This document shows positions 9,133 to 31,204 of a stretch of DNA of 32,000 bases, one piece after another. Origin of the DNA: Cereibacter sphaeroides 2.4.1 (lineage in GTDB: Bacteria > Pseudomonadota > Alphaproteobacteria > Rhodobacterales > Rhodobacteraceae); NCBI RefSeq assembly GCF_000012905.2, contig NC_009007.1, positions 32,968 to 64,967 on the forward strand. Reading direction: 5' to 3'. The notes beneath the pieces are model-generated. The model was not told the DNA's origin and did not search any database. It was given only the letters and a program-made list of their open reading frames with translations. Each line of letters begins with the position of its first letter. The stretch's first letter is position 1. The position numbers were made by a program, and so were the translations under genes.

Positions 9133-9187
9133 GGGCGAACTTTCCGAACCTCTGACTGTCGGCACGGGCGGTGCGCGCCCGGCCGAA

Positions 9188-9213
9188 CGTTATGTATTCG
9201 AACTACATATCAC
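9188..9213. promoter_or_regulatory. Mo-box (ModE/MopA-type operator) in the modA promoter
   Basis: CGTTATGTATTCGAACTACATATCAC contains the inverted repeat ATGTA-N7-TACAT. It is the only AT-rich island in the spacer. It lies 56 nt upstream of the modA ATG and overlaps a candidate -10. It resembles the E. coli ModE operator half-site CGTTATAT. Confidence 0.7.
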
Positions 9214-11041: not shown

Positions 11042-11080
11042 GGGAACGGGTCCTGTCACGGGAAGGGAAGGGGGCGGCCC

Positions 11081-11869: not shown

Positions 11870-11878
11870 CGGCCCCTC

Positions 11879-11903
11879 CGATATATATGCTGAATGCATA
11901 ACG
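11879..11903. promoter_or_regulatory. Second Mo-box, immediately upstream of modE (autoregulation candidate)
   Basis: The minus strand reads CGTTATGCATTCAGCATATATATCG. It aligns with the modA box CGTTATGTATTCGAACTACATATCAC through a shared CGTTATG.ATTC...A.ATATC pattern. It is directly followed by the modE SD. Confidence 0.6.
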
Positions 11904-11977
11904 ACCTTAGCGCGCCCCGCGCGGGGGCTCCAGTGCTCCGGTCGCGGCGGGAGCGGCGGTCCTGCGGCGGGCCGGGG

Positions 11978-12682: not shown

Positions 12683-12872
12683 CGCGCCCCTCCGTCCGGA
12701 CCAATTTGCAGACCAATCCCGCGGCGTGACAAGAGACGTTCGTCCGCTCCCGTTCGATCCCGCCCTCTCGCTTCCCGCGCCGGCCCATCCGCTCCCGCCC
12801 CGCCTGATCCTGCCCCGCCTGATCCTGCCCCGGCCGCGCCCGGCCCATCCCGATCCCCTCCGGAGGTTCTCC

Positions 12873-13622: not shown

Positions 13623-13661
13623 GCCTGCCGCGACCCGCTCCGGGGCCGCGGCAGGGAGCCG

Positions 13662-14522
13662 TCAGGCGCGCAGCGCGTGGAGGCGCAGCGCGGCACCGCC
13701 CGCATAGTCGGCCGCCTCCCAGCCCGCCCAGGCGCCGTGGTGCTCGACCGAGCAGAGGATCTGCATCGGCGTCTCCATCTCCCAGGTGGCGCCGGGCACG
13801 TCGGCCGGGGTGAAGCGCGCGACCTGCGCCCCGTCGATCCGGAAGGTCACGGCCCCAGCATCCTGGGCGATCTCGTAGCGGTGGACGCCCGCCGCGAGCG
13901 GCACCAGCACCTTCTCGGACGAGACCGTGCCCCCGCCCGCCTTCGGCATGTGGATGCCCACCGCCCAGACCGGCTGGCCGTCCTTCTTGATCAGCTCGAA
14001 GTCGAACTCGCGGGCCGTCCGGGCATAGGTGAAGAAGGCGCAGACGGCGCCCGGATCGACCACCTCGAGCAGTGCGCCCCAGGGACCGGTGGTTGGGGCG
14101 GGCCGGTTGAGCTGCAGCACGCCCGAGCGCGGCGGGGTGCCGTCCACATGTTTCAGGAGCACCGATCCCGCGCTCTCCCACTGGCAGAGCGAGGGATCGC
14201 CCATCGTGCCCGCGCCGCCGAGCCAGGTGGTCATGATGAGCTCGTCCACCGCCCAGTCGGCCGCATCCCCGCGGGCGCGGCGGAAATCGCCCGCGCGCCG
14301 GTAGCCCGTGGGCAGGGTCACCGGATCGGGGCTGCCGTCGGGCCCGGAGGCGCCGGTCGCGGCCAGCGCCACGGCCATGGCCGACAGCCGGTCCTCGAGC
14401 GCCGAGACCCGCACCGTGACGGGGAGGAGATCGGCCGGGGTGCCGGCGGGCGCGGCCTCGAGCGCCGCAAGGCGGGCCGAAAGCCCGTCGAGAAGGGGGG
14501 TGAGGTCGGGATCGATGGCCAT
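13662..14522 (-). CDS. Hypothetical protein: Ala-rich coiled N-terminal region plus a GH16/concanavalin-like beta-sandwich domain (286 aa)
   Basis: There is a strong GAAGGAGAG SD and no signal peptide (MAIDPDLTPLLDGLSARLAALEAAP...). The C-terminal part contains FFTYARTAREFDFELIKK, which matches the ExDxE catalytic motif of GH16 (compare DEIDFEFLG). It also has the GH16-like strand YEIAQDAGAVTFRIDGAQVARF. Confidence 0.6.
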   Translation of the reverse strand: MAIDPDLTPLLDGLSARLAALEAAPAGTPADLLPVTVRVSALEDRLSAMAVALAATGASGPDGSPDPVTLPTGYRRAGDFRRARGDAADWAVDELIMTTWLGGAGTMGDPSLCQWESAGSVLLKHVDGTPPRSGVLQLNRPAPTTGPWGALLEVVDPGAVCAFFTYARTAREFDFELIKKDGQPVWAVGIHMPKAGGGTVSSEKVLVPLAAGVHRYEIAQDAGAVTFRIDGAQVARFTPADVPGATWEMETPMQILCSVEHHGAWAGWEAADYAGGAALRLHALRA

Positions 14523-17702: not shown

Positions 17703-18731
17703 TCACCCTCCCATGGCGCCGACAGTCTTGCCAGGATCCAGGGAGGCACGATCGCTGCCGGGGAAATGGCAGGCGGCGAACTGGCCAGGGGCTTCAACAG
17801 GCATCAGCGGTGGCGGTGTGGTCCTGCATACCGGTTGCGCCAGCGGGCAGCGGGTGTGGAAGCGGCAGCCGGGCGGCGGATTGGCCGGGCTGGGAAGATC
17901 GCCCTTGATCGCGGCAAAGCGCGTCTTGCCGCGATTGCGCGACGGCGATGCCCGCAGCAGCGCCGCCGTATAGGGATGCGAGGGCGCGTCAAAGATCTGA
18001 TGCTTGCTGCCCATCTCGACCACCTGCCCGAGATACATCACCATCACCCTGTCAGAGATATGCCGGATCACGCCGAGATCGTGGCTGATGAACAGATAGG
18101 TCAGCCCGAGGCTTTGCTTGAGATCCTGCAGCAGATTGAGGATCTGTGCCTGAATCGAGACATCCAGCGCCGAAGCCGCCTCGTCGCAGACGATGAAGCG
18201 CGGGTTCAGCGCCAGGGCGCGGGCGATGCAGATCCGCTGGCGTTGCCCGCCCGAGAACTCATGGGCGAAGCGCGCCGCATGGTAAGGAGCAAGCCCGACC
18301 AGATCTAGCAGCTCATCGAGCCGGGCCTGCCGGGAGGCCGGTGTGCCGACGCCATGGATGACCAGCGGCTCGACAATCAGCTCGCCCACCGTCATGCGCG
18401 GATTCAACGCTCCGAACGGGTCCTGAAAGATGATCTGCATGTTGCGGCGCATGGCGCGCATCCGGGCGGCGTCCAGCCCGCCCAGATCGGTACCGTCGAA
18501 CTCGACCTTCCCCGACGTGGCCTCGAGCAGCCGCAGCACCATGCGGCCGAGCGTGGTCTTGCCGCAGCCGCTTTCACCCACGACACCGAGCGTTTCCCCG
18601 GCCCGCACGTCGAACGAGACCCTGTCGACCGCCCGCACGACCCGGGGCGCCCCGCCGAGCCAGCCGCCTCCCGAGGAGAATTCCTTGCGCAGATCCTGCA
18701 CACGCAGCAGCGGGGGAAGAGGGTCTTGCAT
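17703..18731 (-). CDS. Oligopeptide/dipeptide-type ABC transporter ATP-binding protein, DppF/OppF-like (342 aa)
   Basis: It starts [18 protein letters not shown] and has Walker A GESGCGKTT, the signature FSGGQRQRI, and a C-terminal oligopeptide-ABC Cys motif (PPGCRFHTRCP). The ATG at 18731 overlaps the upstream stop by 1 nt. Confidence 0.88.
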   Translation of the reverse strand: MQDPLPPLLRVQDLRKEFSSGGGWLGGAPRVVRAVDRVSFDVRAGETLGVVGESGCGKTTLGRMVLRLLEATSGKVEFDGTDLGGLDAARMRAMRRNMQIIFQDPFGALNPRMTVGELIVEPLVIHGVGTPASRQARLDELLDLVGLAPYHAARFAHEFSGGQRQRICIARALALNPRFIVCDEAASALDVSIQAQILNLLQDLKQSLGLTYLFISHDLGVIRHISDRVMVMYLGQVVEMGSKHQIFDAPSHPYTAALLRASPSRNRGKTRFAAIKGDLPSPANPPPGCRFHTRCPLAQPVCRTTPPPLMPVEAPGQFAACHFPGSDRASLDPGKTVGAMGG

Positions 18732-19747
18732 CACGGGGCTCCTGCAGGAGTGATCTCGTCCAGCCGCAGGCAGGCGGCGCGATGGTCGGGACCGCATGCC
18801 AGCAGCGCTGGTTGGGCAAGGCGGCAGCCGGCGGCGGCATGGGCACAGCGCGGCTCGAAACGGCAGCCCGGCGGTGGATCGAAAGCCGGCGGCACCGTCC
18901 CGGGGATCGCATAGAGCCGGTCGGTGTCCACCTCGCTGGAGGGGATGGAGGCCAGCAGCCCGCGGGTATAGGGATGGCGCGGCGCATCGAAGACCGCACC
19001 GGCCGGCGCCTCTTCGATCACCCGGCCGGAATACATGATCATCACCCGGTCGGCGAAGGACGAGACGACCCCGAGGTCATGGGTGATCATCACCGTACCC
19101 ATCCGGTACTCTTCCTGCAGATCCTGCAACAACTCGAGGATCTGGGCTTGAATGGTGACATCGAGCGCGGTGGTCGGCTCGTCGGCGATCAGGACCCGCG
19201 GCTGGCAGGCCAGCGCCACGGCAATCATCGCGCGTTGCCGCATGCCGCCCGACATCTGATGCGGATAGTCATCGACACGCTGCGCCGCCGCCGGAATGCC
19301 GACCCGCCCCAGAGCGTCGATGGCACGGGCGCGCGCCACACGGCGACCGACCCCTTCGTGGCGGATCACTGTCTCGATGATCTGCTCGCCCACCGTCAGC
19401 ACCGGATTGAGCGCCGTCATCGGTTCCTGAAAGATCATGGCGATGGCGCTGCCGCGCAGCTGCTCGCAGCGCCGCTCGGTCGCCTGCAACAGATCCTCGC
19501 CCAGAAGGCGCAACCGGCTGGCGGTGATCGCGGCCTCCTTCGGCAGCAGGCGCATGATCGCCAGGGACGAGACGCTCTTGCCGCTGCCGGATTCCCCGAC
19601 CAGCCCGACGACCTCGCCCTCGTTCAGGGTCAACGAGACCTTGTTGATGATCGGCACGCCGCCGATGCTGACCGAGAGATCCGCCACTTCCAGCAGCGGG
19701 GCCGGTCCGGCAGCGGGGGAGGCAGGGGAAGGGGCATGTTGGGTCAT
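18731..19747 (-). CDS. Oligopeptide/dipeptide-type ABC transporter ATP-binding protein, DppD/OppD-like (338 aa)
   Basis: It contains [11 protein letters not shown], Walker [10 protein letters not shown], the signature MSGGMRQRA, and a C-terminal [13 protein letters not shown] motif. Confidence 0.88.
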
Positions 19748-19754
19748 GGGCTTG

Positions 19755-19774
19755 ATCGTATACGATTATACGAT
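19755..19774 (+). promoter_or_regulatory. Operator-like site S1 (GntR/FadR-type), between the enolase-family gene and the ATPase genes
   Basis: ATCGTATACGATTATACGAT contains the perfect 12-bp palindrome ATCGTATACGAT. It matches S2 and S3 at 17 of 20 positions shared by all three sites. Confidence 0.6.
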
Positions 19775-19796
19775 TCTTACAAGGAATTTTCTCGGT

Positions 19797-20972
19797 TCAA
19801 AGCTGCGGCGTGCGGTAGATCAGCTGTCCGCCGATGCGGATCTCGGTCTCGACCAGGTAGCGGCGCAGCGCGGACGCAGCCACCTGCAGCCCCAGCCCCG
19901 GTGCTTCCGGAGCCCGGATCAACCCCTCGGCATCGGGCCGGATGTGATCGCCGGTGATATCGAGCGCCAGTTGCTGCGGGGCGGCGGGATATTCGCAGAT
20001 GCGGTCGGCCTCGAGCCCGGCAAAGGGCTGCAACGAGGCGGAGAGCGCCAGATGCGAGGTGAAGGTATGGTTGACATAGGTGATGCCGCGCGCCTGCGCC
20101 GCATCGGCCACCCGCTTCGCCGGACCGAGCCCTCCGATGCGGCCGCAGTCGATCTGGATGAAGCCGATACGGCCGTAATCCATCAGATGCTGCGCCATAT
20201 GGAAGTTGTGCGCCGCCTCGCCGCCGGCGATGCGGACACGGGCACCGCGCCCGGCCAGAGCGGCATGGGCGGCCAGCGCGCCCGCATCGAACGGCTCTTC
20301 GAGCCAGAGCACCCCGGCGGCATCGAGCGTCGGCAGGCGCGCAGCGGCAGCCTCGACATCCTCTCCGAAGATCTGGCCGACATCGACCATCAGGTCCCCG
20401 TCCGGGCCCAGCCCTTCGCGCGCGGCCATGATCTGATCGGCGTCCGCCGCCACAGTGCCGCGCCCGATCGGACCCCAGCCGAATTTGACGGCTGCAAAGC
20501 CATCGCGCCGCGCGGCGCGGGCCCGCTCGAGTGTCTCCTGCGGCGTATCGCCGAACAGCAGCGAGGCGTAGGGCCTCTTGCCATGGCTGGCGCTGTAGCC
20601 CAGCAGGGCCCATGCCGGGGCCGAGAGCCTGCGGCCCAGCAGATCCCACAGCGCCATCTCGATCCCCGACAGCATATGCGGCGCCTGCAGCAGGTCCATC
20701 GAGTTATAGCCGACCAGCGCCGCAATGCGGGCGATATCGTCCGGCCCGTCCAGCCGCTGACCGAGCACGGAGTCCGAGACCGGACGGCAGACACCGTGCG
20801 ATTTCGGACAGACGAAGGCGGCGATCGAGGGCAGCGGCGCCGCTTCGCACTCGCCCCAGCCGATATGTCCGCCGGCCGCCACCCGGACCAGCAGCGCATC
20901 CTGACTGCCATCGGCGGCATCGGTCACCTCGGGCATCGACAGATAGAAAAGGTCGACGGCATCGATCTTCAT
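19797..20972 (-). CDS. Enolase-superfamily enzyme, mandelate racemase subgroup (probable acid-sugar/hydroxy-acid dehydratase or racemase; 391 aa)
   Basis: The barrel motifs are AAVKFGWGP, LMVDVGQ (metal Asp), WLEEPF (Glu), IAGGEA (Glu), IQIDCGRIGG (Asp of the dyad) and NHTF (His). It starts 1 nt after the stop of the upstream M81 gene. Confidence 0.8.
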   Translation of the reverse strand: MKIDAVDLFYLSMPEVTDAADGSQDALLVRVAAGGHIGWGECEAAPLPSIAAFVCPKSHGVCRPVSDSVLGQRLDGPDDIARIAALVGYNSMDLLQAPHMLSGIEMALWDLLGRRLSAPAWALLGYSASHGKRPYASLLFGDTPQETLERARAARRDGFAAVKFGWGPIGRGTVAADADQIMAAREGLGPDGDLMVDVGQIFGEDVEAAAARLPTLDAAGVLWLEEPFDAGALAAHAALAGRGARVRIAGGEAAHNFHMAQHLMDYGRIGFIQIDCGRIGGLGPAKRVADAAQARGITYVNHTFTSHLALSASLQPFAGLEADRICEYPAAPQQLALDITGDHIRPDAEGLIRAPEAPGLGLQVAASALRRYLVETEIRIGGQLIYRTPQL

Positions 20973-20973
20973 G

Positions 20974-22470
20974 TCAGCTCCGGTCTGCGCGCAGATGGGC
21001 CGTCGCGCGCGGGGTGAAATCGGTCAGGGGATCGAGCGGGAACATCGGCCGGGCGCAGATCCGGTGCCCGAGGCTGGCCAGATCCGCCGAGGTCGATCCC
21101 GGCGTGTCGATGTTGAAGTTGCGGGTGACCCAGGCGTCATACATGTGGTGTTCGGTATGGGGCGACTTGACCACGATCAGGTCGAAATCGGCCGGATCCA
21201 GCCCGTTGGCGTAGTAGATCGCCCGGTCGAAGAGCATGGCGGGCAGGCTCATCGCGACGACGGTGACGGTGCCGAATTCGAGCACGGCGCAGCGCCCGGC
21301 GTTCAGCGGTGTCTTCATGGTCTCGAGCCGGGTCAGGCCGTCCGACAGGAGCCGCACCCGCGCAGTGACCTCCAGCGGCGTGAAACGCGCAGGATCCATC
21401 CGCCCGCCGAGCGTGACCGGGATCTCGGCCCCCACCCCGGCCCTGTGGGCGGCCTCGGCGGCCTGCGGATCGACGATCTGCGCCAGCACCCGACCCGGAT
21501 AGTCCGCAGCCAGCAGCCCGCGCAGGATGGCATTCGAATCGCCGCTCGCCCCCGAGGAGGTCGCGTCGGCTGCATCGGTGAACACGACCGGGCCGGTCAG
21601 TGTCCGCGCTTCGGCAACGGCGTCGGAAAGACCGATCAGACGGCCCTGCATGCGATGGCGCAGGGCCCAGAATGCCGCGGCCAGCCGCTCGGCCTCGGCC
21701 CGGCCCCGCAGAGGGTCATCCGTGGTGAGGACGACCTGAGAGCAGAGTTCCGGCGCATCGGTGAAGGGATTGCCGATCATCAGGCCGGCCGCCAGCACCA
21801 TGCCATCGGCTTCGAGACGCCGGCATTCGCGGATCAGGTCGCCGTAGCAGCCGGTCGCGGTGATCAGTTCGTCGCCGCGCACCAGCGCCGGGATCACCGC
21901 CCGGACGATGCTGGCGGGGCGGCGGGCTGTCAGCCGGTCCAGCAGAAGCCGCGCCGCACGCGCGCCGGTATCGGCGAAATCGACATGCGGATAGGTGTGA
22001 TAGACGGCGATGCCATCCACCTGTGCAATCATCCGCTCGGTCAGGATGCCGTGCAGATCGAGCGAGATGATGATCGGCCGATCCGGTCCGGCAAGCGCGC
22101 GGATCTGCGCGAGCAGCCAGCCCTCCGGATCGGGCTCACCCACTGCCCCCATGGCCCCGTGCAAGCTGACATAGATGGCGTCCGCGCCGCCCACCCCCGC
22201 CCGCACCCGGTCGAGGATCTGCGCCGACAGCCGCGCCCAGCCCTCGGCCGACAGGATGCCGGCACTGTCGGCGCGGGCGGCAACGGTCGGGATCAGCGTG
22301 ACGCCGGGCGTGGCCTCGAGCACCGAGAGCGCGCCGCCGATGGCGGTGTTGCGGCCGCGATGCTGGAAGAGATCCTCCCCCTCCTCGATATGGAACAGCT
22401 CATAGTCGGACGGCACCGGATTGAAGGAGGAAATCTCCTGCATGCATTCGACGATCAGGATGGCGGGCAT
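20974..22470 (-). CDS. M81-family metallopeptidase (MlrC-like, microcystinase C family; 498 aa)
   Basis: It starts MPAILIVECMQEISSFNPVPS and contains ADAIYVSLHGAM, ISLDLHG and HTYPHVD, which are N-terminal MlrC family motifs. This is the 3' part of the 635-aa track ORF. A GGAG SD lies 17 nt after the upstream stop. Confidence 0.75.
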   Translation of the reverse strand: MPAILIVECMQEISSFNPVPSDYELFHIEEGEDLFQHRGRNTAIGGALSVLEATPGVTLIPTVAARADSAGILSAEGWARLSAQILDRVRAGVGGADAIYVSLHGAMGAVGEPDPEGWLLAQIRALAGPDRPIIISLDLHGILTERMIAQVDGIAVYHTYPHVDFADTGARAARLLLDRLTARRPASIVRAVIPALVRGDELITATGCYGDLIRECRRLEADGMVLAAGLMIGNPFTDAPELCSQVVLTTDDPLRGRAEAERLAAAFWALRHRMQGRLIGLSDAVAEARTLTGPVVFTDAADATSSGASGDSNAILRGLLAADYPGRVLAQIVDPQAAEAAHRAGVGAEIPVTLGGRMDPARFTPLEVTARVRLLSDGLTRLETMKTPLNAGRCAVLEFGTVTVVAMSLPAMLFDRAIYYANGLDPADFDLIVVKSPHTEHHMYDAWVTRNFNIDTPGSTSADLASLGHRICARPMFPLDPLTDFTPRATAHLRADRS

Positions 22471-22487
22471 GGCGGCGCTCCGGTGAT

Positions 22488-23528
22488 TCAGTGTTGGGGC
22501 CAGGTGTCGTTGTAGTCTTCCATCACCACCGCGACGGCATCGCCCCGGGTGACACGGCCGGGGCCGGCTCCGAACCAGACGATCCCGTCGCGCCGATAGA
22601 GAAGTTCGAGCGGGGCGGTATCGACATCCTCGACGAAGTGGATCCAGCCGGCGGTCTCGCCCGTCCGGACCTCTTCGCCCACATAATGCGTCGGCTCGAA
22701 GAGGCCTGTGCGCGGGGCCATGACATAGGCATCCGCCTCGCGCACCATCATGTGCCGGGTGCCGGCCGCGCCCCCGCGCTGCGCCGTCTCGGGCGTGCCC
22801 TCGATGACGCCCATGTGCTTCAGGACATTGAGGATACCGCGCTTGCCGATCCGCACGCCCTCGATGTTCACCCGGCCCCATCCGCCCAGTTCGGTGCCGA
22901 GCGAGACGATGCCGCGCCTTTCGACGCAGGAGGTGAAGGTCGAGCCCTCGTCCACACCGCCGAAAACGACATTGTGCGGCGCACCGAAGGCTTCGGCGGC
23001 AGCCAGTGTCCGGGCCCGCAGCGCCGGATCCGCAAGGTAGTGCATGTTGGTCGAGGGGGTCGAGTCGTAGGAATGCCCCGCCGTGTGCATGTCGACCGAG
23101 ATATCGGCCATCGGCAGGATCACCGAGTCCAGAAAATGCGCCAGCATCTGGCTGAACGTGCCCCGGGGATCGCCCGGGAAGCAGCGGTTGATGTCCCGGC
23201 CGTCGACGGGCGAAAGGCGGGTGTCCGACTGGATCGCCGGCATGTTCACCGCCGGCAACATGATGACGCGGCCCTGCACCTCTTCGGGACGCAGGCGGCG
23301 GGCAAGGTCGGAAATCGCGATCTGACCTTCATATTCATCGCCATGCACGCCGCCTGTCAGCAGCACCGTCGGACCGCTGCCGTTCTTCACCACGGTGATC
23401 GGGATCTCGACCGTGCCCCAGCCGGAATTGTTGCGAGACAGCGGCGCGCGGGCGTAGCCGGCCTGCCGCCCGTCCCTGTCGAAGTCGATGTCACAGGCAA
23501 TCCGGCTCTTCGCCTCAGAGTTGGCCAT
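22488..23528 (-). CDS. Succinylglutamate desuccinylase/aspartoacylase (AstE/AspA, M14-like) family deacylase (346 aa)
   Basis: It starts MANSEAKSRIACDIDFDRDGRQAGYARAP and contains TVLLTGGVHGDEYEG, a zinc-binding HxxE motif, plus DINRCFPG and VDMHT. A strong GGGAGGGA SD is present. This is the 3' end of the 1145-aa track ORF. Confidence 0.8.
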   Translation of the reverse strand: MANSEAKSRIACDIDFDRDGRQAGYARAPLSRNNSGWGTVEIPITVVKNGSGPTVLLTGGVHGDEYEGQIAISDLARRLRPEEVQGRVIMLPAVNMPAIQSDTRLSPVDGRDINRCFPGDPRGTFSQMLAHFLDSVILPMADISVDMHTAGHSYDSTPSTNMHYLADPALRARTLAAAEAFGAPHNVVFGGVDEGSTFTSCVERRGIVSLGTELGGWGRVNIEGVRIGKRGILNVLKHMGVIEGTPETAQRGGAAGTRHMMVREADAYVMAPRTGLFEPTHYVGEEVRTGETAGWIHFVEDVDTAPLELLYRRDGIVWFGAGPGRVTRGDAVAVVMEDYNDTWPQH

Positions 23529-23559
23529 CGGTCCCTCCCAAACTCTCTTGTTTCGCAAG

Positions 23560-23579
23560 ATTGTATACGATAATACGGT
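23560..23579 (+). promoter_or_regulatory. Operator-like site S2 in the divergent promoter region between the deacylase operon and the enolase2 operon
   Basis: ATTGTATACGATAATACGGT lies 32 nt from the minus-strand ATG at 23528 and 55 nt from the plus-strand ATG at 23634. Confidence 0.6.
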
Positions 23580-23633
23580 TGTCAAGGCAGCCGCCGCCCT
23601 CGATCCAGATTTCCGCGCAAGAGGTTTTTGCAG

Positions 23634-24815
23634 ATGACATCCACCGCCTTCGCCCCGCGCAGCCTTGCGCCGGCCCGCATCACTGCCGTGCGCGTCGCCC
23701 CCCTGCTGGGCGAGAGTCCGCAGGGCGGGTGGAGCCATGAGATCAAGGCGGACGACAGCGTGCATGCGCTGATCGCACTGCACACGGATGCCGGCATCTC
23801 GGGCTATGGCAGCGTCTTCACCAATGGCGCGCTGGTACAGGCGGCGGCGGATGTTCTGACACCGCTGCTGCTGGGCGAGAATGCGCTGGAACCCGACCGC
23901 ATCGCCGAGAAACTGCACCAGAACACCTTCTGGATGGGGCGCGGTGGCTCGATCACCCACACGATCAGCGGCATCGATATCGCCATGTGGGACATCCTTG
24001 GCCAGGCCACCGGCCTGTCGGTGGGGCGGCTCCTGGGCGGGCGGCACCGCGACCGGGTGCAGCCCTATTGCTCGCTGCTGATGGACATGCCCGAGCGGAT
24101 GGAAGCGGTGATCGCCCCGCACCGCGCGGCGGGGTTCCGCGCCTTCAAGATCGGCTGGGGGCCGTTCGGCCGGCGCGGCGATGCCGGACTCGACCGCGCC
24201 ATCATCGACGCGGCCCGCACCGCGGTCGGTACGGATGCCCAGCTTCTTGTCGATGCCGGGGCCTCGGATGCCTATTGGCCGAACGGTCTGAAATGGGCGA
24301 TGAACACCGCCGCCATGCTGGCCGACTACGATGTCGGCTGGTTCGAGGAAGCGCTGCCGCCCGATGCGATCGAGGATTTCATCGCCTTGCGTCGTATGAG
24401 CCCGGTGCCGATCGCCGGCGGCGAGGTGCTGACGCGGCGCCAGAGCTTCGCCCCCTGGCTGGTGCGCGGCGCCTTCGACATCGTGCAGCCCGATGTGACG
24501 AAGGTCGGCGGCATCAGCGAGCAGCGCCGCATCGCTTGGATGGCGCGCGATTTCGGCATCCGCTACGTGGGCCACGGCTGGAACACCGCCTTCGGTCTGG
24601 CGGCCGATCTGCAGCTGGCCGCCGCCATGCCCGACTGCACGCTGGTCGAATATATCGGCGGCTCGGCCTATGTCGACCGGCTGACCACACGCCCCTTCGC
24701 CCTCGATGCCGAGGGCATGCTGGCGATCCCCGATCTGCCCGGCCTCGGCGTCAGCCCCGATCCGGCACTGCTGGCGCGCTATACGCCCGACCCGGAGAAA
24801 TTCTTCAGCGCCTGA
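23634..24815 (+). CDS. Second enolase-superfamily enzyme, mandelate racemase subgroup (393 aa)
   Basis: Motifs are RAFKIGWGPFG, LLVDAGA, WFEEAL, IAGGEV, VQPDVTKVGG and GHGWN. It is clearly a paralogue-type relative of the gene at 19797-20972, but divergent from it. The ATG at 23634 has a GAGG SD; the track start at 23628 is a TTG. Confidence 0.8.
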   Translation: MTSTAFAPRSLAPARITAVRVAPLLGESPQGGWSHEIKADDSVHALIALHTDAGISGYGSVFTNGALVQAAADVLTPLLLGENALEPDRIAEKLHQNTFWMGRGGSITHTISGIDIAMWDILGQATGLSVGRLLGGRHRDRVQPYCSLLMDMPERMEAVIAPHRAAGFRAFKIGWGPFGRRGDAGLDRAIIDAARTAVGTDAQLLVDAGASDAYWPNGLKWAMNTAAMLADYDVGWFEEALPPDAIEDFIALRRMSPVPIAGGEVLTRRQSFAPWLVRGAFDIVQPDVTKVGGISEQRRIAWMARDFGIRYVGHGWNTAFGLAADLQLAAAMPDCTLVEYIGGSAYVDRLTTRPFALDAEGMLAIPDLPGLGVSPDPALLARYTPDPEKFFSA

Positions 24816-24836
24816 ACAGGCAAAGGGAGGACGACG

Positions 24837-25583
24837 ATGAACCAGATCGATCTGGCCGGCCGCGTGGCCGTGGTGACGGGCGGCGCGCAGGGGATCGGGC
24901 GCGCCGTGGCCGAGCGGCTGATCGCCTCGGGGGCGCGGGTCTGCCTGTGGGACCGCGACGCCGGGCGGGCCGCGGCGACGGCGGCCGAACTGGGCGGGAA
25001 CAGCTTCTTTCAGGTGGTGGATCAGGTGGATTTCACGGCGGTAAAGGCCGCCGCCGACGCCACCGAAGCCACGGGCGGCCGGATCGACATCCTGATCGCC
25101 AACGCGGGCATCGCCGGCAGCAATGCGCCGGTCGCCGACTACCCGGTCGAGGAATGGCACCGCATCATCGATATCAACCTGAACGGTGTCTTCCATTGCT
25201 GCAAGGCGGTGGTGCCCGGCATGAAGGCCCACGGATACGGGCGCATCGTCACGGTCGCCTCGATCGCCGGCAAGGAAGGCAATCCCAATGCGGCCGCCTA
25301 TTCGGCCTCGAAGGCCGGGGTCATCGCTTTGACCAAATCGCTGGGCAAGGAGGTCGCCGGCCAGGATATCGCCGTCAATTGCGTGACCCCGGCCGCCGCC
25401 CGCACGCAGATCTTCGACCAGATGGCGCAGAGCCACATCGACTACATGCTGTCGCGCATCCCGCGCGGCCGCTTTCTGGATCTGGACGAGGCCGCGGCGA
25501 TGATCGCGTGGCTGGCCAGTGCCGAGAACAGCTTTACCACCGGTGCCGTCTTCGATCTCTCCGGCGGCCGGGCCACCTATTGA
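24837..25583 (+). CDS. Short-chain dehydrogenase/reductase (SDR), FabG-like (248 aa)
   Basis: It has TGGAQGIGRA (the Rossmann TGxxxGIG motif), NAGI, and a YSASKAG catalytic Tyr-xxx-Lys. An AAGGGAGGA SD is present. Confidence 0.88.
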   Translation: MNQIDLAGRVAVVTGGAQGIGRAVAERLIASGARVCLWDRDAGRAAATAAELGGNSFFQVVDQVDFTAVKAAADATEATGGRIDILIANAGIAGSNAPVADYPVEEWHRIIDINLNGVFHCCKAVVPGMKAHGYGRIVTVASIAGKEGNPNAAAYSASKAGVIALTKSLGKEVAGQDIAVNCVTPAAARTQIFDQMAQSHIDYMLSRIPRGRFLDLDEAAAMIAWLASAENSFTTGAVFDLSGGRATY

Positions 25584-25592
25584 GAGAGTGAC

Positions 25593-26125
25593 ATGAAACC
25601 TGTCGGAGACGGGCCCGCAGGGCAGGAGACGCCCGGAAGGCTCGATGCCGATGGCGCGCTGCGCGCGCTCTCTGGACTGGGTCGATGACATCGCCGGAGC
25701 GGCGCCGCGGCCCGCGGGGCGGGCGCGGCTCCGCGCCCTCGGCCCTGCGGCCTTGCCCGCGGTTGCGGGCACTCCTCGCACAGGCCCCCGTGCCGGGCGC
25801 GGGGGGCAGGTCATCTGCATCGGGGTGAACCGAACCGACCACGCCGCCGAAGCCGGTCCGGCGGTTCCGGCCGGGCCGGCGATCTTCATGAAGGCGACGG
25901 GCACCATCTGCGGCCCGGAGGACACGATGCCGATCCTGCGACGCGCGCAAGACCGGCCGGGAAGTCGGGCCGGACGGCGTCATCGGCCATGGCGGCACGC
26001 GCCAATGCCACGGCGCCTGTCGCCGGCTATTGCGTCACGCGCGATGTCTCGGAACGGGCTGACGGCGGAACGGCCCCGGAGACATGCTCTCGGGGCCGTT
26101 TGTCTTGCAGAAGGGCGGCCGTCGG
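25593..26125 (+). pseudogene. Decayed, 3'-truncated fumarylacetoacetate hydrolase (FAH)-family gene (2-keto-4-pentenoate hydratase / 2,4-diketo-3-deoxy-acid hydrolase type)
   Basis: The ATG at 25593 keeps a GAGAGAG SD, and the frame reads MKPVGDGPAGQETPGRLDADGALRALSG before stopping at 25686-25688. Family-like segments continue in other frames. These are WVDDIAGA...LRALGPAALPAVAG...GQVICIGVNRTDHAAEAG...PAIFMKATGTICGPEDTMPI (frame of the track ORF at 25645), then KTGREVGPDGVIGHGG in a third frame. After that comes VAGYCVTRDVSER (frame of the track ORF at 25989), then SGPFVL (frame of the track ORF at 26084). That requires at least four frame changes. Roughly the C-terminal third of a normal FAH protein is missing, because the convergent SDR gene ends at 26126. 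Confidence 0.7.
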
Positions 26126-26836
26126 TCAGATCGTCCAGCCGCCATCGATCGCGATGGCCTGCCCTGTCGTATAGCCCGAACAGGCCAGCCAGAGCGCGAG
26201 ATCGGCGATCTCTTCCGGCGTGCCCAGCCGACCCATCGGCTGGCGGGCAACGAAGGCCGCACGGGCGGCCTCCGCATCGCCTGTGGCGCCGAGCCTCTCG
26301 CGCAGGCTGGGGCTCTCGACGGTTCCGGGGCAGATCGCATTGCAGCGGATGCCTCTCGAAACGAAATCCGCTGCAACCGATTTGGTCAATCCGATCACCG
26401 CCGCCTTGCTGGTGCCATAGACGCAGCGGTCGGGCGCCCCCTTGAGGCTGCTGACCACCGAGGCGATGTTGACGATACTGCCCGAGCCCGCCGCCAGCAT
26501 TCCGGGCAGCACCGCCCGAATGGTGCGGATCGTGCCCCTGAGGTTGATGTCCAGCGCCAGATCCAGCTCGGCCTCGGTCTGATCGAGTATCGTGCCGCCA
26601 TGCACGACGCCGGCGCAGTTCACGAGCACATCGACCGGGCCGAGCCCCGCGACCAGGGCCTCCACCGCCGCCCCGTCGCGCACATCGAGCGCATGGCACT
26701 CGGCCGCCAGCCCATCCAGAAGCCGCGCATCGCGGTCGCTGGCCAATACCCGCGCGCCGGCGGCCAGGAAACGCTCGGCGCAGGCGCGGCCGATGCCCTG
26801 CCCGGCCGCCGTGATGAGGACGGTCTTTTCCTGCAT
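26126..26836 (-). CDS. SDR-family oxidoreductase, DHRS6 / 2-keto-3-deoxy-acid dehydrogenase-like (236 aa; 241 aa if started at 26851)
   Basis: It starts MQEKTVLITAAGQGIGRA and contains NCAGVV, a YGTSKAAV catalytic motif, and a C-terminal TTGQAIAIDGGWTI. The ATG at 26836 has a GGGAG SD. The alternative ATG at 26851 overlaps the permease stop as ATGA. Confidence 0.85.
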   Translation of the reverse strand: MQEKTVLITAAGQGIGRACAERFLAAGARVLASDRDARLLDGLAAECHALDVRDGAAVEALVAGLGPVDVLVNCAGVVHGGTILDQTEAELDLALDINLRGTIRTIRAVLPGMLAAGSGSIVNIASVVSSLKGAPDRCVYGTSKAAVIGLTKSVAADFVSRGIRCNAICPGTVESPSLRERLGATGDAEAARAAFVARQPMGRLGTPEEIADLALWLACSGYTTGQAIAIDGGWTI

Positions 26837-26847
26837 GTCTCCCGTCC

Positions 26848-27753
26848 TCATGAGCGGCGGGCACGCATCCGCGGGTCCAGCACATCGCGCAACCCGTCGC
26901 CCATCAGGTTCAGTCCCAGCACCGCCAGGGCGATCACCAGACCGGGGAAGAAGGCGATCCAGCCGGCTTCCTGCAGATAGGTGCGGCCGTCGGAGATGAT
27001 ATTGCCCAGCGAGGGGGCGGGCGGCGGGGGTCCTACTCCGAGGAAGCTGAGGATCGCCTCGGCCAGGATCGACACCGCAAAGACAAAGGTCAGCTGCACG
27101 ATCAGCGGAGAGAGCGCGTTGGCGAGGATATAGCGCAGCACGATGCGCATATGCCCGGCTCCGACGGCCACGGCCGCCTCGACATAGGGCAATTCGCGGA
27201 TCACAAGCACGCTGGCCCGCATGATGCGGGCGGTGCGCGGCGTGAAGGTGATGGTCAGCGCAATCACCGCATTCATCAGCGAGGGACCGAGGGCGGCCGC
27301 CAGCGCGATGGCCAGCAGCACCCCGGGAAAGGCCATCAGCCCGTCCATCACCCGCATCAGCCCGTTGTCGAGCCAGCGGACATAGCCGGCCAGCAGCCCC
27401 AGCACGATCCCCATTATTCCGGTGGCCAGCACCACCGCCAGTCCGATCCCCAGCGAGATCCGCGTGCCATGGATCACCCGGCTCAGGATATCGCGGCCGA
27501 AGACGTCGGTGCCGAACCAGTGCTGCGCCGAGGGCGGCATCAGCAGGGCACGGTAATTGTTCTTGTTCGGATCGTAGGGCGCGATCAGATCGGCCAGCAG
27601 CGCCATCAGCACGATCAGGGCAAAGAAGGCGAAGCCGATCTGGAACGAGCGGTGGCGGAACAGCCGGCGCAGCAGCGCCCCGGCGGCGGTCAGCCGGGCC
27701 GAGCGAGGGGCGGCCGGGCCGCCGGCGGTCGGATCGAGAGAACTATCGGTCAT
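26848..27753 (-). CDS. ABC transporter permease, DppC/OppC-like (301 aa)
   Basis: It starts MTDSSLDPTAG and contains HWFGTDVFGRDILSRVIHG. It also has the EAA-loop region PYVEAAVAVGAGHMRIVLRYILANAL. Its start overlaps the upstream permease gene by 11 nt. Confidence 0.88.
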   Translation of the reverse strand: MTDSSLDPTAGGPAAPRSARLTAAGALLRRLFRHRSFQIGFAFFALIVLMALLADLIAPYDPNKNNYRALLMPPSAQHWFGTDVFGRDILSRVIHGTRISLGIGLAVVLATGIMGIVLGLLAGYVRWLDNGLMRVMDGLMAFPGVLLAIALAAALGPSLMNAVIALTITFTPRTARIMRASVLVIRELPYVEAAVAVGAGHMRIVLRYILANALSPLIVQLTFVFAVSILAEAILSFLGVGPPPPAPSLGNIISDGRTYLQEAGWIAFFPGLVIALAVLGLNLMGDGLRDVLDPRMRARRS

Positions 27754-28696
27754 TGCGCACCCGCGGGTCGAACCAGCCATAGGCCAGATCCACCAGAATA
27801 TTGACGAAGACGAAGAGCGAAGCGGTGATGAGCAGCCCGCCCTGAATGATCGGGAAATCGCGGCGCTGGATTGCGCCGATGATCAGACGGCCCACCCCCG
27901 GGAGAGAGAAGACGGACTCGATCACCACCGCGCCACCGAGCAGCACCCCGGTCATCACGCCGATCACGGTGATGACCGGCACCAGCGCATTGCGCAGCGC
28001 ATGTTTGAAGACCACCGTATGGCGCCGCATGCCCTTGGCACGGGCGGTGCGGATATAGTCCTGCCCCATCACCTCGAGCATCGAGGAGCGCGTCATCCGG
28101 GCGATCACCCCCATCTGGGTGAAGGCCAGCGCCAGGGACGGCAGCGCCATCGAGCGCGCCCAGCCGAGCGCATCCTCGGAGAAAGGCACATAGCCGCCGG
28201 TCGGGAACCAGGCGAGCCCCACCGAAAAGACCGAAATCATGATCAGCCCGAGCCAGAAATCCGGCACCGAAAGGCCGATCAGCGCCACCGACATCGTGCC
28301 CTGATCGACCCAGCTGTCATGCCGGATCGCCGCCAGCACACCCAGCAGCACGCCGAGGACCACCGCCAGCACCAGCGCCAGCCCGGCCAGCGACAGCGTG
28401 ACGGGCAGCCGTTCCAGCACCGCATCGGTGACCGACATGTTCAGCAGATAGGAATGCCCCAGATCGCCCTGCAGCAGGTTGCCGTACCAGCGCAGCGCCT
28501 GCTGATACAGCGGCTGGTTCAATCCCAGCTGGTCGCGGATCACGGCGCGCTGCTCGGCGGTGGCCTCGGCCCCTGCAAGCTCGGCCGTCACATCGCCCGG
28601 CACGATGGCGATGATGGCAAAGGTCACCAGCGATACCACGAAAAGCACCGGAACCGCGCTGACCATCCGTCGGATCAGAAACCTCAGCACTGTCAT
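27743..28696 (-). CDS. ABC transporter permease, DppB/OppB-like (317 aa)
   Basis: It starts MTVLRFLIRRMVSAVPVLFVVSLVTFAI and contains DYIRTARAKGMRRHTVVFKHALRNAL. An AGGAGA SD is present. Confidence 0.9.
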   Translation of the reverse strand: MTVLRFLIRRMVSAVPVLFVVSLVTFAIIAIVPGDVTAELAGAEATAEQRAVIRDQLGLNQPLYQQALRWYGNLLQGDLGHSYLLNMSVTDAVLERLPVTLSLAGLALVLAVVLGVLLGVLAAIRHDSWVDQGTMSVALIGLSVPDFWLGLIMISVFSVGLAWFPTGGYVPFSEDALGWARSMALPSLALAFTQMGVIARMTRSSMLEVMGQDYIRTARAKGMRRHTVVFKHALRNALVPVITVIGVMTGVLLGGAVVIESVFSLPGVGRLIIGAIQRRDFPIIQGGLLITASLFVFVNILVDLAYGWFDPRVRNDR

Positions 28697-28741
28697 TCTC
28701 CTGTCCTGACGGGCGGTGGGTCGCCCGCGCCATTGGCTGTG

Positions 28742-28768
28742 CCCGGGCGCGCATCGGCCGCGCCCGGG
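28742..28768 (-). terminator. Strong intercistronic hairpin between the SBP and permease genes (attenuator / mRNA-stabiliser candidate)
   Basis: The minus strand reads CCCGGGCGCG-gccgatg-CGCGCCCGGG, a perfect 10-bp stem. It sits in the 80-nt gap between the SBP stop at 28777 and the permease ATG at 28696. Confidence 0.5.
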
Positions 28769-28776
28769 CCGGTCAC

Positions 28777-30333
28777 TCAGTCGGCGAACCAGACGTTGTA
28801 GACGCGCGGGAAGCGGAAGGGACGGAAGCCTTCGACCTTGGCGCTCGATGCCTGCATCAGCCCGGTCTCCCCCAGTTTTATGACCGGGGCAAAGGTGTCC
28901 AGGCGCTGCTGGATGCGGGCGAAGACCGCCTTGCGCGCAGTCAGATCGGCCGTGTCGACCAGTTCGGCATAGAGCGCATCCAGTTCCGGGTCGGCCTTTC
29001 GGAAATGGGTGGCCGGTCCGGCGAAGGTGGAGATCAGCGCCTCCGGCCCCAGATAGGGCTCGATCCCCATGGTCAGCGTCCAGGCCGACCAGCCGGTGTC
29101 CTGCAGACGGATCTGCAACGCCGTCGGCCAGTCGACCTGATTGATGACCACATTCACGCCGATGGCGCGCAGCTGCTCGGCGATCACGACCGCCGCCTTG
29201 TTGCGCTCGGGGCCCTGGGTATCGGTCAGGATGGTGAAGGGCTGGCCGGAATAGCCCGCCTCGGCCAGCAGCGCCCGGGCGCGGTCGAGATCGGCGACGT
29301 TGTAGCGGTCCTTGCCGATCTCGCCCGCGTCATAGGTCGTCCCCTCATACATCCAGCCATGGTAGAGGTTGAACAGCCCTTCGGTGGCGATCGCCATGAT
29401 CTCCTCGGAGTTCAGCGCGATCTGCACCGCCTCGCGGAATTTCGGATTGTCGGCCGGCGCTTCGTTGAGGTTGAAAATGAAGACGAGGAAGGCCCAGGGG
29501 CTGTTCTCATAGACCTTCATCTCGCTGTTGCCGGCCAGACGCCTCGCGGTCGGCACCGGGATCTGCTCCAGCAGCTGGACCTCGCCGGCCTCGAGCGCCG
29601 CCACCGCTGCCCCCGGCTCCGGGATGACGCGGAAGGTGACGCTGTCGAGATAGGCGGTCTTCTTGCCGCCGAAGCCGTCGATATCGGCATGGGTCTCATC
29701 CGCGGCGTAATCGGCGAACCGCTCCAGCCGGACGTGGCTGTCGGGGACATATTCGACGAATTTGTAGGGGCCGGTGCCGATCACCGCGATCTCGTTCGCG
29801 GGCTTTCCGGCCTCTTCGGCGGGAATGATGACGGCCGGGGCGCGGGGAGAGGCAAAGGCTTCGAGGAAACCGGGAAAGGGCTTCTCCATGGTCAGCGTGA
29901 CCTCGAGCGGCCCGCTGGCCTCGATGCTCGTCACTCCCGCCAGCATCGAGGCGGTCCCGCCGATCGCCTTGTAGCGCTCCAGCGAGGCACGGACATCCTC
30001 GGCCCCCATCTCCTTGCCGTTGTGGAACTTGACCCCGGCGCGCAGCGGAAACCTGTAGGTGAGCCCGTCCTCCGAGATCTCGACCCCGGTGGCAAGGATC
30101 GGGATCGGCACGATGGAGTCCGAGAAGCCGTACAGGGTCTCGTAGATGTTCATCGTGATGTTGCGCGACATCTGCGAGGTGGTGACCATCGCATCCAGGC
30201 TGGGCGGATTGGAGGCCTGGGCCACGATCAGATCGCCGCCCATGCTCTGGGCATCCGCGGTGCTGGCGCTCAAACCGATGAACAGCGCCGCACCCGTGGC
30301 CATAAGCATGCGCCAGAGGCTGATTTTTGGCAT
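28777..30333 (-). CDS. ABC transporter substrate-binding protein, family 5 (peptide/nickel/opine type; 518 aa)
   Basis: It starts MPKISLWRMLMATGAALFIGLSASTADAQSMGGDLIVAQ, a signal peptide. Family-5 features are present throughout, for example NPPSLD and FHNGKEMGAEDV. A GAGAGGAA SD lies before the ATG at 30333. The track start at 30405 adds 24 unlikely residues. Confidence 0.88.
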   Translation of the reverse strand: MPKISLWRMLMATGAALFIGLSASTADAQSMGGDLIVAQASNPPSLDAMVTTSQMSRNITMNIYETLYGFSDSIVPIPILATGVEISEDGLTYRFPLRAGVKFHNGKEMGAEDVRASLERYKAIGGTASMLAGVTSIEASGPLEVTLTMEKPFPGFLEAFASPRAPAVIIPAEEAGKPANEIAVIGTGPYKFVEYVPDSHVRLERFADYAADETHADIDGFGGKKTAYLDSVTFRVIPEPGAAVAALEAGEVQLLEQIPVPTARRLAGNSEMKVYENSPWAFLVFIFNLNEAPADNPKFREAVQIALNSEEIMAIATEGLFNLYHGWMYEGTTYDAGEIGKDRYNVADLDRARALLAEAGYSGQPFTILTDTQGPERNKAAVVIAEQLRAIGVNVVINQVDWPTALQIRLQDTGWSAWTLTMGIEPYLGPEALISTFAGPATHFRKADPELDALYAELVDTADLTARKAVFARIQQRLDTFAPVIKLGETGLMQASSAKVEGFRPFRFPRVYNVWFAD

Positions 30334-30419
30334 TCCGCGTTCCTCTCTGTTATGGGCGGACTTGTCGGTGCTGAACTGCCGGCATCTGTCCAGGATGGAC
30401 GGCATGGTAAAACTCAGCT

Positions 30420-30439
30420 ATCGTATGATCGTATACAAT
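30420..30439 (-). promoter_or_regulatory. Operator-like site S3 in the divergent SBP / gntR promoter region (autoregulation candidate)
   Basis: The minus strand reads ATTGTATACGATCATACGAT. It ends 7 nt before the gntR ATG at 30446 and lies 87 nt upstream of the SBP ATG. Confidence 0.6.
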
Positions 30440-30445
30440 GCTATC

Positions 30446-31204
30446 ATGCAGTCAAGAAGTTCGAGTCAAGAGATGCACGCGAAAGACACACAACCCGGAA
30501 CTGATGCCCTTCCCCGGCTTGCGCCGCTGGAGGCCCGCACCCTGGTGGACCAAGTGGTGGATGCGATTGTCGAGGCCACCGCCACCGGTGCGTTCCTGCC
30601 CGGCGACCGGATCGTCGAGGCCGAGGTGGCCCGCGCGCTGAATGTCAGCCGCGTCCCGGTGCGCGAGGCGCTTCGGATCCTCGAGAGCCAGGGCATCGTG
30701 GTGAACGAGCGCTATCGCGGCATGCGGCTCATGGATGTCTCAGCCGACCGGCTGGAGAAGATCCTCAAGGTGCGTAACGCATTGGAAACGCTTGCGGCCC
30801 ACGAGGTCCTTGATCTCAAGCCGGAGCATCCCGACATTCTGAGCCCGCTTGAGGCCCGGGTGCGGGAATTGCATGCCGCAGTGGCGGCTGGCGATTCCTT
30901 TGGAGTCGCGCGGCTGGACACGGAATTCCACCGCACCCTGTGCAAGATCTCGGGCAATGGTGTGCTGCTGCAAAGCTGGGAGCCGTTGTCGCGGCAGCTG
31001 ACCATCATCTTCGGCCTCTCGACGCTGCAGAAGCCCATCGAATCCATCGCGCGGGAACATGACGACGTGCTGGATGCGCTGCGCGCAGGCGACCGGGCCG
31101 CGGTGACCGAGATGATTCGGGTCCATATCCTCGATTATAGCCGCGAGTTGGATTACGAAGGACTTGTCCGTGCCCACAGGTTCGGCCGCAGGGCAAAGGA
31201 ATGA
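30446..31204 (+). CDS. GntR-family regulator with an FCD domain; probable island regulator (252 aa; alternative ATG at 30473)
   Basis: It contains ...TLVDQVVDAIVEATATGAFLPGDRIVEAEVARALNVSRVPVREALRILESQGIVV, a GntR winged helix-turn-helix. The FCD part includes DTEFHRTLCKISGN and REHDDVLDALRAGD. This is the 3' part of the 352-aa track ORF. Confidence 0.85.
   Translation: MQSRSSSQEMHAKDTQPGTDALPRLAPLEARTLVDQVVDAIVEATATGAFLPGDRIVEAEVARALNVSRVPVREALRILESQGIVVNERYRGMRLMDVSADRLEKILKVRNALETLAAHEVLDLKPEHPDILSPLEARVRELHAAVAAGDSFGVARLDTEFHRTLCKISGNGVLLQSWEPLSRQLTIIFGLSTLQKPIESIAREHDDVLDALRAGDRAAVTEMIRVHILDYSRELDYEGLVRAHRFGRRAKE

Follow-up and report, generated by a model that had tools for sequence, protein, structure and literature searches.

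The non-phosphorylating route-3 pathways for L-fucose and L-rhamnose in Herbaspirillum huttiense, Sphingomonas sp. SKA58 and Xanthomonas campestris use a dehydratase (FucC/LRA3), a short-chain dehydrogenase/reductase (SDR; FucF/LRA5) and a hydrolase of the fumarylacetoacetate hydrolase (FAH) family (FucG/LRA6). The same three enzyme types recur in a gene cluster of Cereibacter sphaeroides 2.4.1, at positions 17703-31204 of a 32-kb stretch of DNA (the window, whose numbering we use throughout). In this cluster the dehydratase type is represented by two enolase-superfamily enzymes of the mandelate racemase (MR) subgroup, MR1 and MR2, and the genes are accompanied by a peptide-type ATP-binding cassette (ABC) importer, two metallo-amidases and a GntR-type regulator. 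We put at about one in two the probability that the cluster is a repressor-controlled regulon for a small nitrogen-containing conjugate with a sugar-acid-like, probably 6-deoxy or pentonic, polyhydroxy-acid skeleton.

The likeness to route 3 includes the operon order MR1-SDR1-FAH. Unlike route 3, though, the cluster lacks a sugar 1-dehydrogenase, a lactonase, a mutarotase and a sugar-type transporter; two metallo-amidases and the peptide-type importer replace the upper pathway, the dehydratases are non-orthologous and the hydrolase gene is a pseudogene. Plain use of L-fucose or L-rhamnose was rejected because neither MR1 nor MR2 is an orthologue of FucD or RhamD and because the window as a whole has no gene for a sugar dehydrogenase, a lactonase or a mutarotase.

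Two other systems invite comparison. In the recycling of murein peptides by E. coli, MpaA, an M14-like zinc amidase, works with YcjG and a peptide-type ABC importer. YcjG is a dipeptide epimerase of the muconate lactonizing enzyme (MLE) subgroup, however, whereas MR1 and MR2 are of the MR subgroup, and the E. coli system has no SDR or FAH component. In the oxidative chitin (GlcNAc1A) pathway, a deacetylase derived from amino-acid deacetylases is followed by a deaminase, giving 2-keto-3-deoxygluconate (PMC9537276, PMC12017989). The pathway in Pseudoalteromonas prydzensis (OngB, OngC and KdgK) resembles the proposed one in treating an N-acyl polyhydroxy acid as if it were an amino acid, proceeding from de-N-acylation to a 2-keto-3-deoxy sugar acid under a repressor. 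Its proteins are nevertheless non-homologous (OngB is a D-aminoacylase-type barrel, OngC depends on pyridoxal phosphate and the importer is of the SSS type), and its product is phosphorylated, whereas that of the cluster would undergo oxidation and hydrolysis. We found no characterised homologous cluster in the searchable literature, which leaves out much subscription literature and all fitness databases, and within that scope the upper part of the pathway, importer and amidases, is unlike any characterised system. An earlier account made from the DNA alone (the sequence-only reading) had held that the cluster is neither a plain dipeptide permease nor a plain sugar-acid locus, and this holds. 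The cluster is a conserved orphan pathway, whose enzyme families are known but had not been described together in this way, and not a new kind of system.

The genes are tied together by a 12-bp palindrome, ATnGTATACnAT, which at up to two mismatches occurs at three places in the window and nowhere else, against 0.10 expected. A scan with ATTGTATACGAT at the same tolerance gave six matches, which are the three palindromic sites read on both strands; shuffled sequences never held more than one. Operator 1 (ATCGTATACAAT, 30428-30439) lies between the regulator gene and that of the periplasmic solute-binding protein (SBP), operator 2 (ATTGTATACGAT, 23560-23571) in the divergent intergenic region between the AstE-like deacylase gene and MR1, and operator 3 (ATCGTATACGAT, 19755-19766) in the gap of 49 bp that separates MR2 from the ATPase genes. 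Operator 3 is the sole perfect palindrome of the three and was missing from the earlier list. Its position within the gap suggests that the minus-strand unit from the deacylase gene to the ATPase genes is probably two regulated units. Where three transcription units had originally been proposed, we count three operator sites and probably four or five units. In most relatives the two ATPase genes stand apart as an operon of opposite orientation that has an operator to itself, so the arrangement in Cereibacter looks like a secondary fusion.

To follow the cluster in other organisms, we compared 79 loci from species-representative genomes, anchored on MR2 (the protein of PDB entry 2HZG; orthologues of 62-98% identity), and determined their content by tblastn with all twelve window proteins and by independent clustering of open reading frames (ORFs). 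Operators are conserved in relatives at three intergenic spots: between MR1 and the deacylase gene, between gntR and the SBP gene, and upstream of the ATPases. Equivalent positions are occupied in more than 25 orthologous loci from many genera, including a divergent ATPase/sulfatase region, and the position of operator 2 is conserved in more than 20. A GntR orthologue is present at 30 of the 79 loci. Under a relaxed operator pattern, these GntR-positive loci (567 kb) hold 53 sites, compared with 8 sites in the 49 GntR-negative loci (792 kb). Operators that are both conserved and co-varying with the regulator are good phylogenetic-footprint evidence for one regulon. The shared operator motif is real, and its conservation across genera supports the proposed GntR-type regulon, which unites the importer and both metallo-amidases with the enolase, SDR and FAH genes.

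The regulator gene (30446-31204, plus strand) encodes a GntR winged helix followed by an FCD domain (Pfam), which is the architecture of the FadR subfamily, and palindromes of the T-n-GT-n-AC-n-A type lie in its predicted target promoters. On the minus strand, a promoter-like site (30455-30428) has a -10 hexamer that coincides with operator 1; this indication is weak, as promoter and terminator scans of the region gave site counts no higher than chance. The RefSeq annotation of NZ_CP015290.1 starts gntR at 30146 (352 aa), so that it runs into the SBP gene at the 5' end of the latter; the SBP is there given a start at 30171 and has no signal peptide. We favour starts at 30446 for gntR and 30333 for the SBP because orthologous regulators are 239-253 aa long, orthologous SBPs have signal peptides, and the operator lies where these starts would place it.

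The importer has all the components of the Dpp/Opp type. The SBP (28777-30333, minus strand) is a family-5 protein (SBP_bac_5), and the start at 30333 provides it with a signal peptide like those of its orthologues. It is followed on the same strand by DppB-like (27743-28696) and DppC-like (26848-27753) permeases with BPD_transp_1 domains, recognised from their translations and from RefSeq annotation, which calls the latter an ABC transporter permease. The orthologous permeases carry OppC_N together with BPD_transp_1. The two ATPases, DppD/OppD-like (18731-19747, minus strand, with NCBIfam matches) and DppF/OppF-like (17703-18731, minus strand, RefSeq coordinates), both combine ABC_tran with oligo_HPY. 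The best NCBIfam match of the DppF-like protein was the dipeptide ATPase subfamily, at 385 bits and under the cutoff of 408. The SBP reached the cutoff of none of the substrate-specific NCBIfam equivalogs DppA, OppA, GsiB, NikA and CntA (the best was GsiB, 143 against 594), and its best PDB match was 8VDX (163 bits).

Two metallo-amidases are encoded side by side on the minus strand. The first (22488-23528, AstE_AspA_cat) is a DoeB-like N-acyl-amino-acid deacylase of the AstE/AspA family; it is the protein of PDB entry 3CDX (786 bits) and scores 242 bits against DoeB (6TWM). It shares the AstE/AspA fold with DoeB/EutE, but the cluster contains no DoeA/EutD, DoeC or DoeD partner genes. Ectoine degradation was rejected because these partners are absent and because the deacylase scored 291.5 bits against the DoeB equivalog TIGR02994, below the cutoff of 402.7. 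The gene is also the only real part, the 3' part (22488-23528), of an antisense open frame of 1145 aa (22488-25925, minus strand) that runs through MR1 and SDR1 and is a high-GC artefact, not a gene.

The second amidase (20974-22470) is a MlrC-like metallohydrolase of family M81, with DUF1485 and MlrC_C domains. Its residues E13, H105, D139, H141 and H163 align with the zinc-site residues of 7YLQ; the metal site of MlrC consists of Glu56, His150, Asp184, His186 and His208 (PMC12474180). The protein thus shares both domains and five zinc-site residues with microcystinase MlrC, but the cluster lacks mlrA, mlrB and mlrD, and its M81 protein is always paired with an MR-subgroup enzyme. Microcystin degradation was rejected, as the protein scored only 132.7 bits against the MlrC model NF041767, far under the cutoff of 999. 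Literature searches for DUF1485, for M81 or MlrC-like proteins, for MlrC combined with mandelate racemase and aspartoacylase, and for sulfatase-linked combinations returned microcystin work only.

MR2 (19797-20972, minus strand) and MR1 (23634-24815, plus strand) both carry the MR_MLE_N and MR_MLE_C domains and are about 27% identical to each other. MR2 is the protein of 2HZG (865 bits). The best PDB matches of MR1 were 3SJN (193 bits), whose name gives no function, 4GGB (155 bits) and 5OLC (142 bits); we take 4GGB to be a galactarolactone cycloisomerase and 5OLC a 3,6-anhydro-D-galactonate cycloisomerase. No relevant papers on 2HZG or 3CDX were found in the searchable literature. The paralogues MR1 and MR2 share an invariant set consisting of a lysine, Asp/Glu/Glu metal ligands, a His-Asp dyad and a strand-8 glutamate. 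The metal ligands are D207/E238/E264 in MR1 and D197/E225/E252 in MR2, invariant in both orthologue sets, and the invariant dyad is H314/D287 in MR1 and H302/D275 in MR2, assigned to strands 7 and 6 by canonical motif order rather than by superposition. Orthologues of MR2 occur in 79 genomes, and the residues conserved in MR2 are K163, D197, E225, E252, D275, H302 and E327. At the end of strand 2, A-x-K replaces the K-x-K motif in both proteins (A170/K172 in MR1, A161/K163 in MR2), and several MR-subgroup dehydratases likewise lack the full motif. By these residues MR1 and MR2 are assigned to the MR subgroup, although the first lysine of K-x-K is an alanine.

The SDR and FAH genes give the sugar-acid reading its precision. 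SDR1 (24837-25583, plus strand) scored 289-301 bits against 6D9Y and the newer entries 9JVE and 9KQ1 (289 bits to 6D9Y). PDB entry 6D9Y is treated as a putative L-2-keto-3-deoxyrhamnonate (L-KDR) 4-dehydrogenase and is 51-54% identical to characterised enzymes; the L-KDR enzyme has a C4 stereoselectivity opposite to that of the L-2-keto-3-deoxyfuconate (L-KDF) enzyme but gives the same diketo product (PMC11199699). SDR1 appears nearest to 6D9Y, and it resembles a putative L-KDR 4-dehydrogenase (LRA5). SDR2 (26126-26851, minus strand) scored 263 bits against 8Y11/8XWK, the L-KDF 4-dehydrogenase of H. huttiense. The signature of the type-1 L-KDF dehydrogenase comprises a carboxylate/hemiketal cluster of Arg148, Thr183, Arg192 and Arg214 and a hydrophobic residue, Trp252, which touches the C6 methyl group (PMC11199699). 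All five are matched in SDR2, by R142, T177, R186, R203 and W239, and its Ser-Tyr-Lys triad (S131/Y145/K149) aligns with that of 8XWK/8Y11. We therefore describe SDR2, from its signature residues, as type-1 L-KDF 4-dehydrogenase (FucF)-like.

Between the two SDR genes lies the remnant of an LRA6/FucG-type 2,4-diketo-3-deoxy-acid hydrolase (25594-26057, plus strand). A Chelativorans locus has an intact FAH gene in the same position, between the SDR1 and SDR2 orthologues, and its product matches 8GSR, an L-2,4-diketo-3-deoxyrhamnonate hydrolase, over the full length with 328 bits. By tblastn, residues 30-116 of the Chelativorans protein match window positions 25681-25941 with 51% identity, and residues 141-159 match 26001-26057 in another frame. 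The window copy is thus frameshifted and lacks residues ~160 to 281, the C-terminal half, so that no intact domain is left. Erosion has gone further in C. johrii, where less of the remnant is left, and in C. sphaeroides IL106, where just 299 bp separate the two SDR genes. The suggested FAH remnant is therefore real, and Cereibacter has lost the FAH step. The sequence-only reading had drawn a comparison with the L-fuconate route, which is not only borne out but sharpened by the full signature of SDR2, the closeness of SDR1 to 6D9Y and the match of the relatives' FAH protein to a known hydrolase.

Conservation is strongest outside the SDR/FAH module. We defined the full core as the two MR-subgroup enzymes, M81, the DoeB-like deacylase, the family-5 ABC importer and GntR. 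It is present at 25 of the 79 loci, from Hyphomicrobiales, Rhodobacterales, Rhodospirillales-type metagenome-assembled genomes and some Burkholderiales. The same gene set thus co-occurs elsewhere, a point that had been left to a genome-neighbourhood analysis, but no characterised counterpart of the cluster turned up in the searchable literature. MR1 orthologues occur at 46 loci and M81 orthologues at 42, in 38 of which M81 lies no more than 60 bp upstream of MR2. Each of the 30 loci with an AstE-like deacylase also has M81. Importer genes are found in similar numbers (SBP at 28 loci, DppB-like permease at 28, DppC-like permease at 23, DppD-like ATPase at 26). SDR1, in contrast, is present at 8 loci, SDR2 at 4 and an intact FAH gene at 5, and the SDR/FAH module is a lineage-specific addition outside the conserved core.

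Other lineages have made additions of their own. Three sulfatase genes stand among the core genes in Alsobacter and in several further genera, some of them Rhodobacterales, and one of the three shares the operator-containing divergent region with the ATPase operon. Three different S1-type sulfatases are encoded at loci L004/L080 (11217-17529), and such genes are also found at L005, L013, L031, L069 and L076. At two of these (L013 and L031) a gene for a formylglycine-generating enzyme (FGE) adjoins MR1, which makes it probable that the sulfatases are genuine. Since sulfatases and FGE join the regulon in some lineages, O-sulfated compounds can also be among the natural substrates. In a Tropicimonas locus (L069), the MR1 operon continues directly after MR1 with a gene for a γ-glutamyltranspeptidase (GGT; 4585-6189, same strand as MR1), and a second GGT gene lies near the cluster at another sulfatase locus (L013, 3035-5005); these two genes hint that γ-glutamyl-linked forms may exist. 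Sulfatases, FGE and GGT in relatives thus widen the likely substrate class.

At loci without the amidases, the MR genes have different neighbours. In Xanthobacteraceae, MR1 and MR2 occur without M81 or the deacylase, beside FAH, SDR and SGL-type lactonase genes, and the adjacent transporters are polar-amino-acid-type and PotD-like ABC systems. In Acidobacteriota, MR2 orthologues lie beside genes for a melibiase-type glycosidase, a zinc alcohol dehydrogenase, a DUF4432 protein and EamA transporters. Tianweitania sediminis (L012, ~1300-5400) has an extra MR2-like paralogue with a polar-amino-acid SBP and a permease beside FAH-SDR1-MR1, and its trio of MR1, permease and SBP3 recurs in Xanthobacteraceae. 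In Chelativorans sp. Marseille-P2723 (L002, 11270-12804), the stretch from MR2 to the ATPase operon contains fragments of an IS481-type transposase (HTH and DDE_3 domains).

On the observations of gene content, linkage, operators, catalytic residues and the SDR2 signature we propose a pathway whose chemical steps are all inferred from family membership. The family-5 ABC system would import an amide-linked conjugate, and the FadR-type GntR protein would leave the three ATnGTATACnAT operators upon binding an effector. In the cytoplasm, the DoeB-like zinc deacylase, with its intact site, would remove an N-acyl group or split an amide of the N-acyl-amino-acid type, while the M81 metallohydrolase, which also has an intact active site, would cut a second amide bond. 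In the sulfatase lineages sulfate would be taken off too. The two MR-subgroup enzymes would then dehydrate the polyhydroxy acids set free (2-hydroxy or 2-amino acids) to 2-keto-3-deoxy acids whose C4 configurations are opposite. In lineages that carry SDR1 and SDR2, these enzymes would oxidise both epimers at C4 and so yield a single 2,4-diketo-3-deoxy acid, which the LRA6/FucG-type FAH enzyme would split into pyruvate and lactate or another short acid. The Cereibacter pathway may end at the diketo acid, may use another hydrolase or may be decaying.

Several points weigh against this proposal. We know of no natural aldonoyl- or amino-aldonate conjugate that fits the gene set. Neither MR1 nor MR2 reached the cutoff of an NCBIfam acid-sugar dehydratase equivalog (GalD, FucD, RhamD, ManD, TalrD/GalrD or AraD); the best scores were 153 bits for MR1, against a cutoff of 311 (galactonate dehydratase), and 91 bits for MR2, against a cutoff of 750. 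The PDB entries 2HZG and 3CDX come from structural genomics and have no assigned function. The SDR and FAH genes, from which the sugar-acid assignment takes its precision, occur at only 4-8 of the 79 loci, so the core might act on a substrate that is not a deoxy-sugar acid. Finally, the FAH pseudogene indicates that the Cereibacter copy is not fully under selection.

Among the alternatives, an oxidised amino-sugar route, which is a more specific version of the general model, survives best, although we consider it unlikely. According to this explanation, N-acyl-2-amino-2-deoxy-aldonates (polyhydroxy N-acyl α-amino acids), for example N-acetyl-6-deoxyhexosaminates, are de-N-acylated by the two amidases, and MR1 and MR2 are deaminating dehydratases that act on the β-hydroxy-α-amino acids and yield 2-keto-3-deoxy acids and ammonia. 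The deacylase is DoeB-like, of the N-acetyl-α-amino-acid deacetylase family, and the signature of SDR2 suits a 2-keto-3-deoxy-6-deoxy acid product. All transporters seen next to MR1 or MR2 in proteobacterial loci are of peptide, polar-amino-acid or PotD-like type and none is of a sugar-acid type, and GlcNAc1A catabolism provides a non-homologous precedent (PMC9537276, PMC12017989). This route does not account for the second, very different amidase (M81), however, and the acidobacterial MR2 orthologues (62-66% identity) stand in plain neutral-sugar contexts. Among the families conserved across loci, where neighbouring ORFs were not all annotated, no RidA-type gene was seen. Moreover, no MR-subgroup enzyme is known to deaminate amino-aldonates. 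It is likewise improbable, in our estimate, that the core is a route, so far undescribed, for amino-sugar acids with N-acyl groups or for aldonoyl-amino-acid conjugates, O-sulfated or γ-glutamylated in some lineages, in which the MR enzymes have a reaction new to their subgroup, such as the deaminating dehydration of 2-amino-2-deoxy-aldonates. If this were true, M81 would gain its first physiological role beyond microcystin degradation.

More doubtful is a chemistry of amino acids and peptides only. Here an unusual peptide with D-, β- or β-hydroxy residues would be imported, MR1 and MR2 would be epimerases or would β-eliminate on N-acyl amino acids or C-terminal residues, M81 and the AstE-like enzyme would complete the hydrolysis, and the SDR and FAH genes would be passengers. 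Most core loci indeed have no SDR and FAH genes. The Dpp/Opp-type importer would suit such a substrate, as would the sole characterised M81 member, which cuts a peptide bond of a β-amino acid, and enolase-superfamily members do epimerise dipeptides and racemise N-acyl amino acids. Those known activities on peptides and N-acyl amino acids belong to the MLE subgroup, however, whereas MR1 and MR2 carry the His-Asp dyad of the MR subgroup, and their best NCBIfam models and their nearest PDB relatives named by function are acid-sugar dehydratases (the PDB names also include cycloisomerase). Where M81 and the AstE-like gene are absent, MR1 and MR2 adjoin lactonase, SDR and FAH genes. SDR1 and FAH share an operon with MR1, and SDR2 shares one with transporter genes, which places the SDR and FAH genes inside the regulon and not beside it as passengers.

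The least likely of these explanations is a mosaic or decaying island, in which peptide scavenging and a free sugar-acid pathway are merely joined under one repressor, or the Cereibacter copy is a non-functional relic: the FAH pseudogene and its progressive erosion in the Cereibacter lineage, the plasmid-borne location and the IS481-type transposase within the Chelativorans cluster are set against 11 of 12 genes that are intact with conserved catalytic residues, against the conservation of gene order, adjacency and operators in two classes of Proteobacteria, and against the dependence of the MR enzymes on the imports of the family-5 system, the sole importer of the regulon. Two further readings were not adopted. 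Catabolism of carrageenan, agar, ulvan or fucoidan oligosaccharides had been considered on account of the sulfatases and the resemblance of MR1 to cycloisomerases, but there is no glycoside hydrolase among the annotated ORFs of the proteobacterial regulons (not all ORFs are annotated). Catabolism of nonulosonic acids and siderophore fragments lacks supporting gene content.

The region 17703-31204 is identical (100%) to part of plasmid b, a non-mobilizable plasmid of ~124 kb in C. sphaeroides 2.4.1; in further strains of the species, plasmids match the region at 97-99% identity. RefSeq names for its genes are generic only. ORF listing, GC content at third codon positions, translations and Pfam and NCBIfam scans placed all twelve genes where they had first been drawn. 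The mean GC content of the island is ~0.67, compared with 0.71-0.78 in the mod region, 0.69-0.70 in the fla genes and 0.64 in the downstream flank. The sequence-only reading had described the genes as less GC-extreme than both the mod and the fla genes, in keeping with an accessory origin. The difference is seen for mod but not for fla, and as the island is on a par with the fla genes and the downstream flank, GC content was rejected as a sign of foreign origin; the location on plasmid b is the better evidence for an accessory status. Elsewhere in the window, the mod/TOBE stretch (9001-14000) has a GC content of 0.73-0.78, above the remainder. Between the mod and fla genes, at ~11512-14521 (converted from RefSeq coordinates), lie a gene for a second FCD-domain (GntR-like) regulator and one for a GH16 glycoside hydrolase; no copy of the operator motif was found near them.

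The regulon proposed here, for nitrogen-containing conjugates of sugar-acid-like compounds, brings together proteins that have long been without a function. The structures 2HZG and 3CDX were solved more than 10 years ago and still lack one, and M81 has one characterised member only. Yet the core is kept at 60-80% identity, with its own repressor and operator, in many alphaproteobacteria and some betaproteobacteria of soil, water and sea. The operator and repressor are a ready-made biosensor for candidate inducers. Once the substrate is identified, four or five large families of orphan proteins would receive functions together, and a class of sugar-acid compounds in the environment, nitrogen-containing and sometimes sulfated, would be recognised as scavenged by bacteria.

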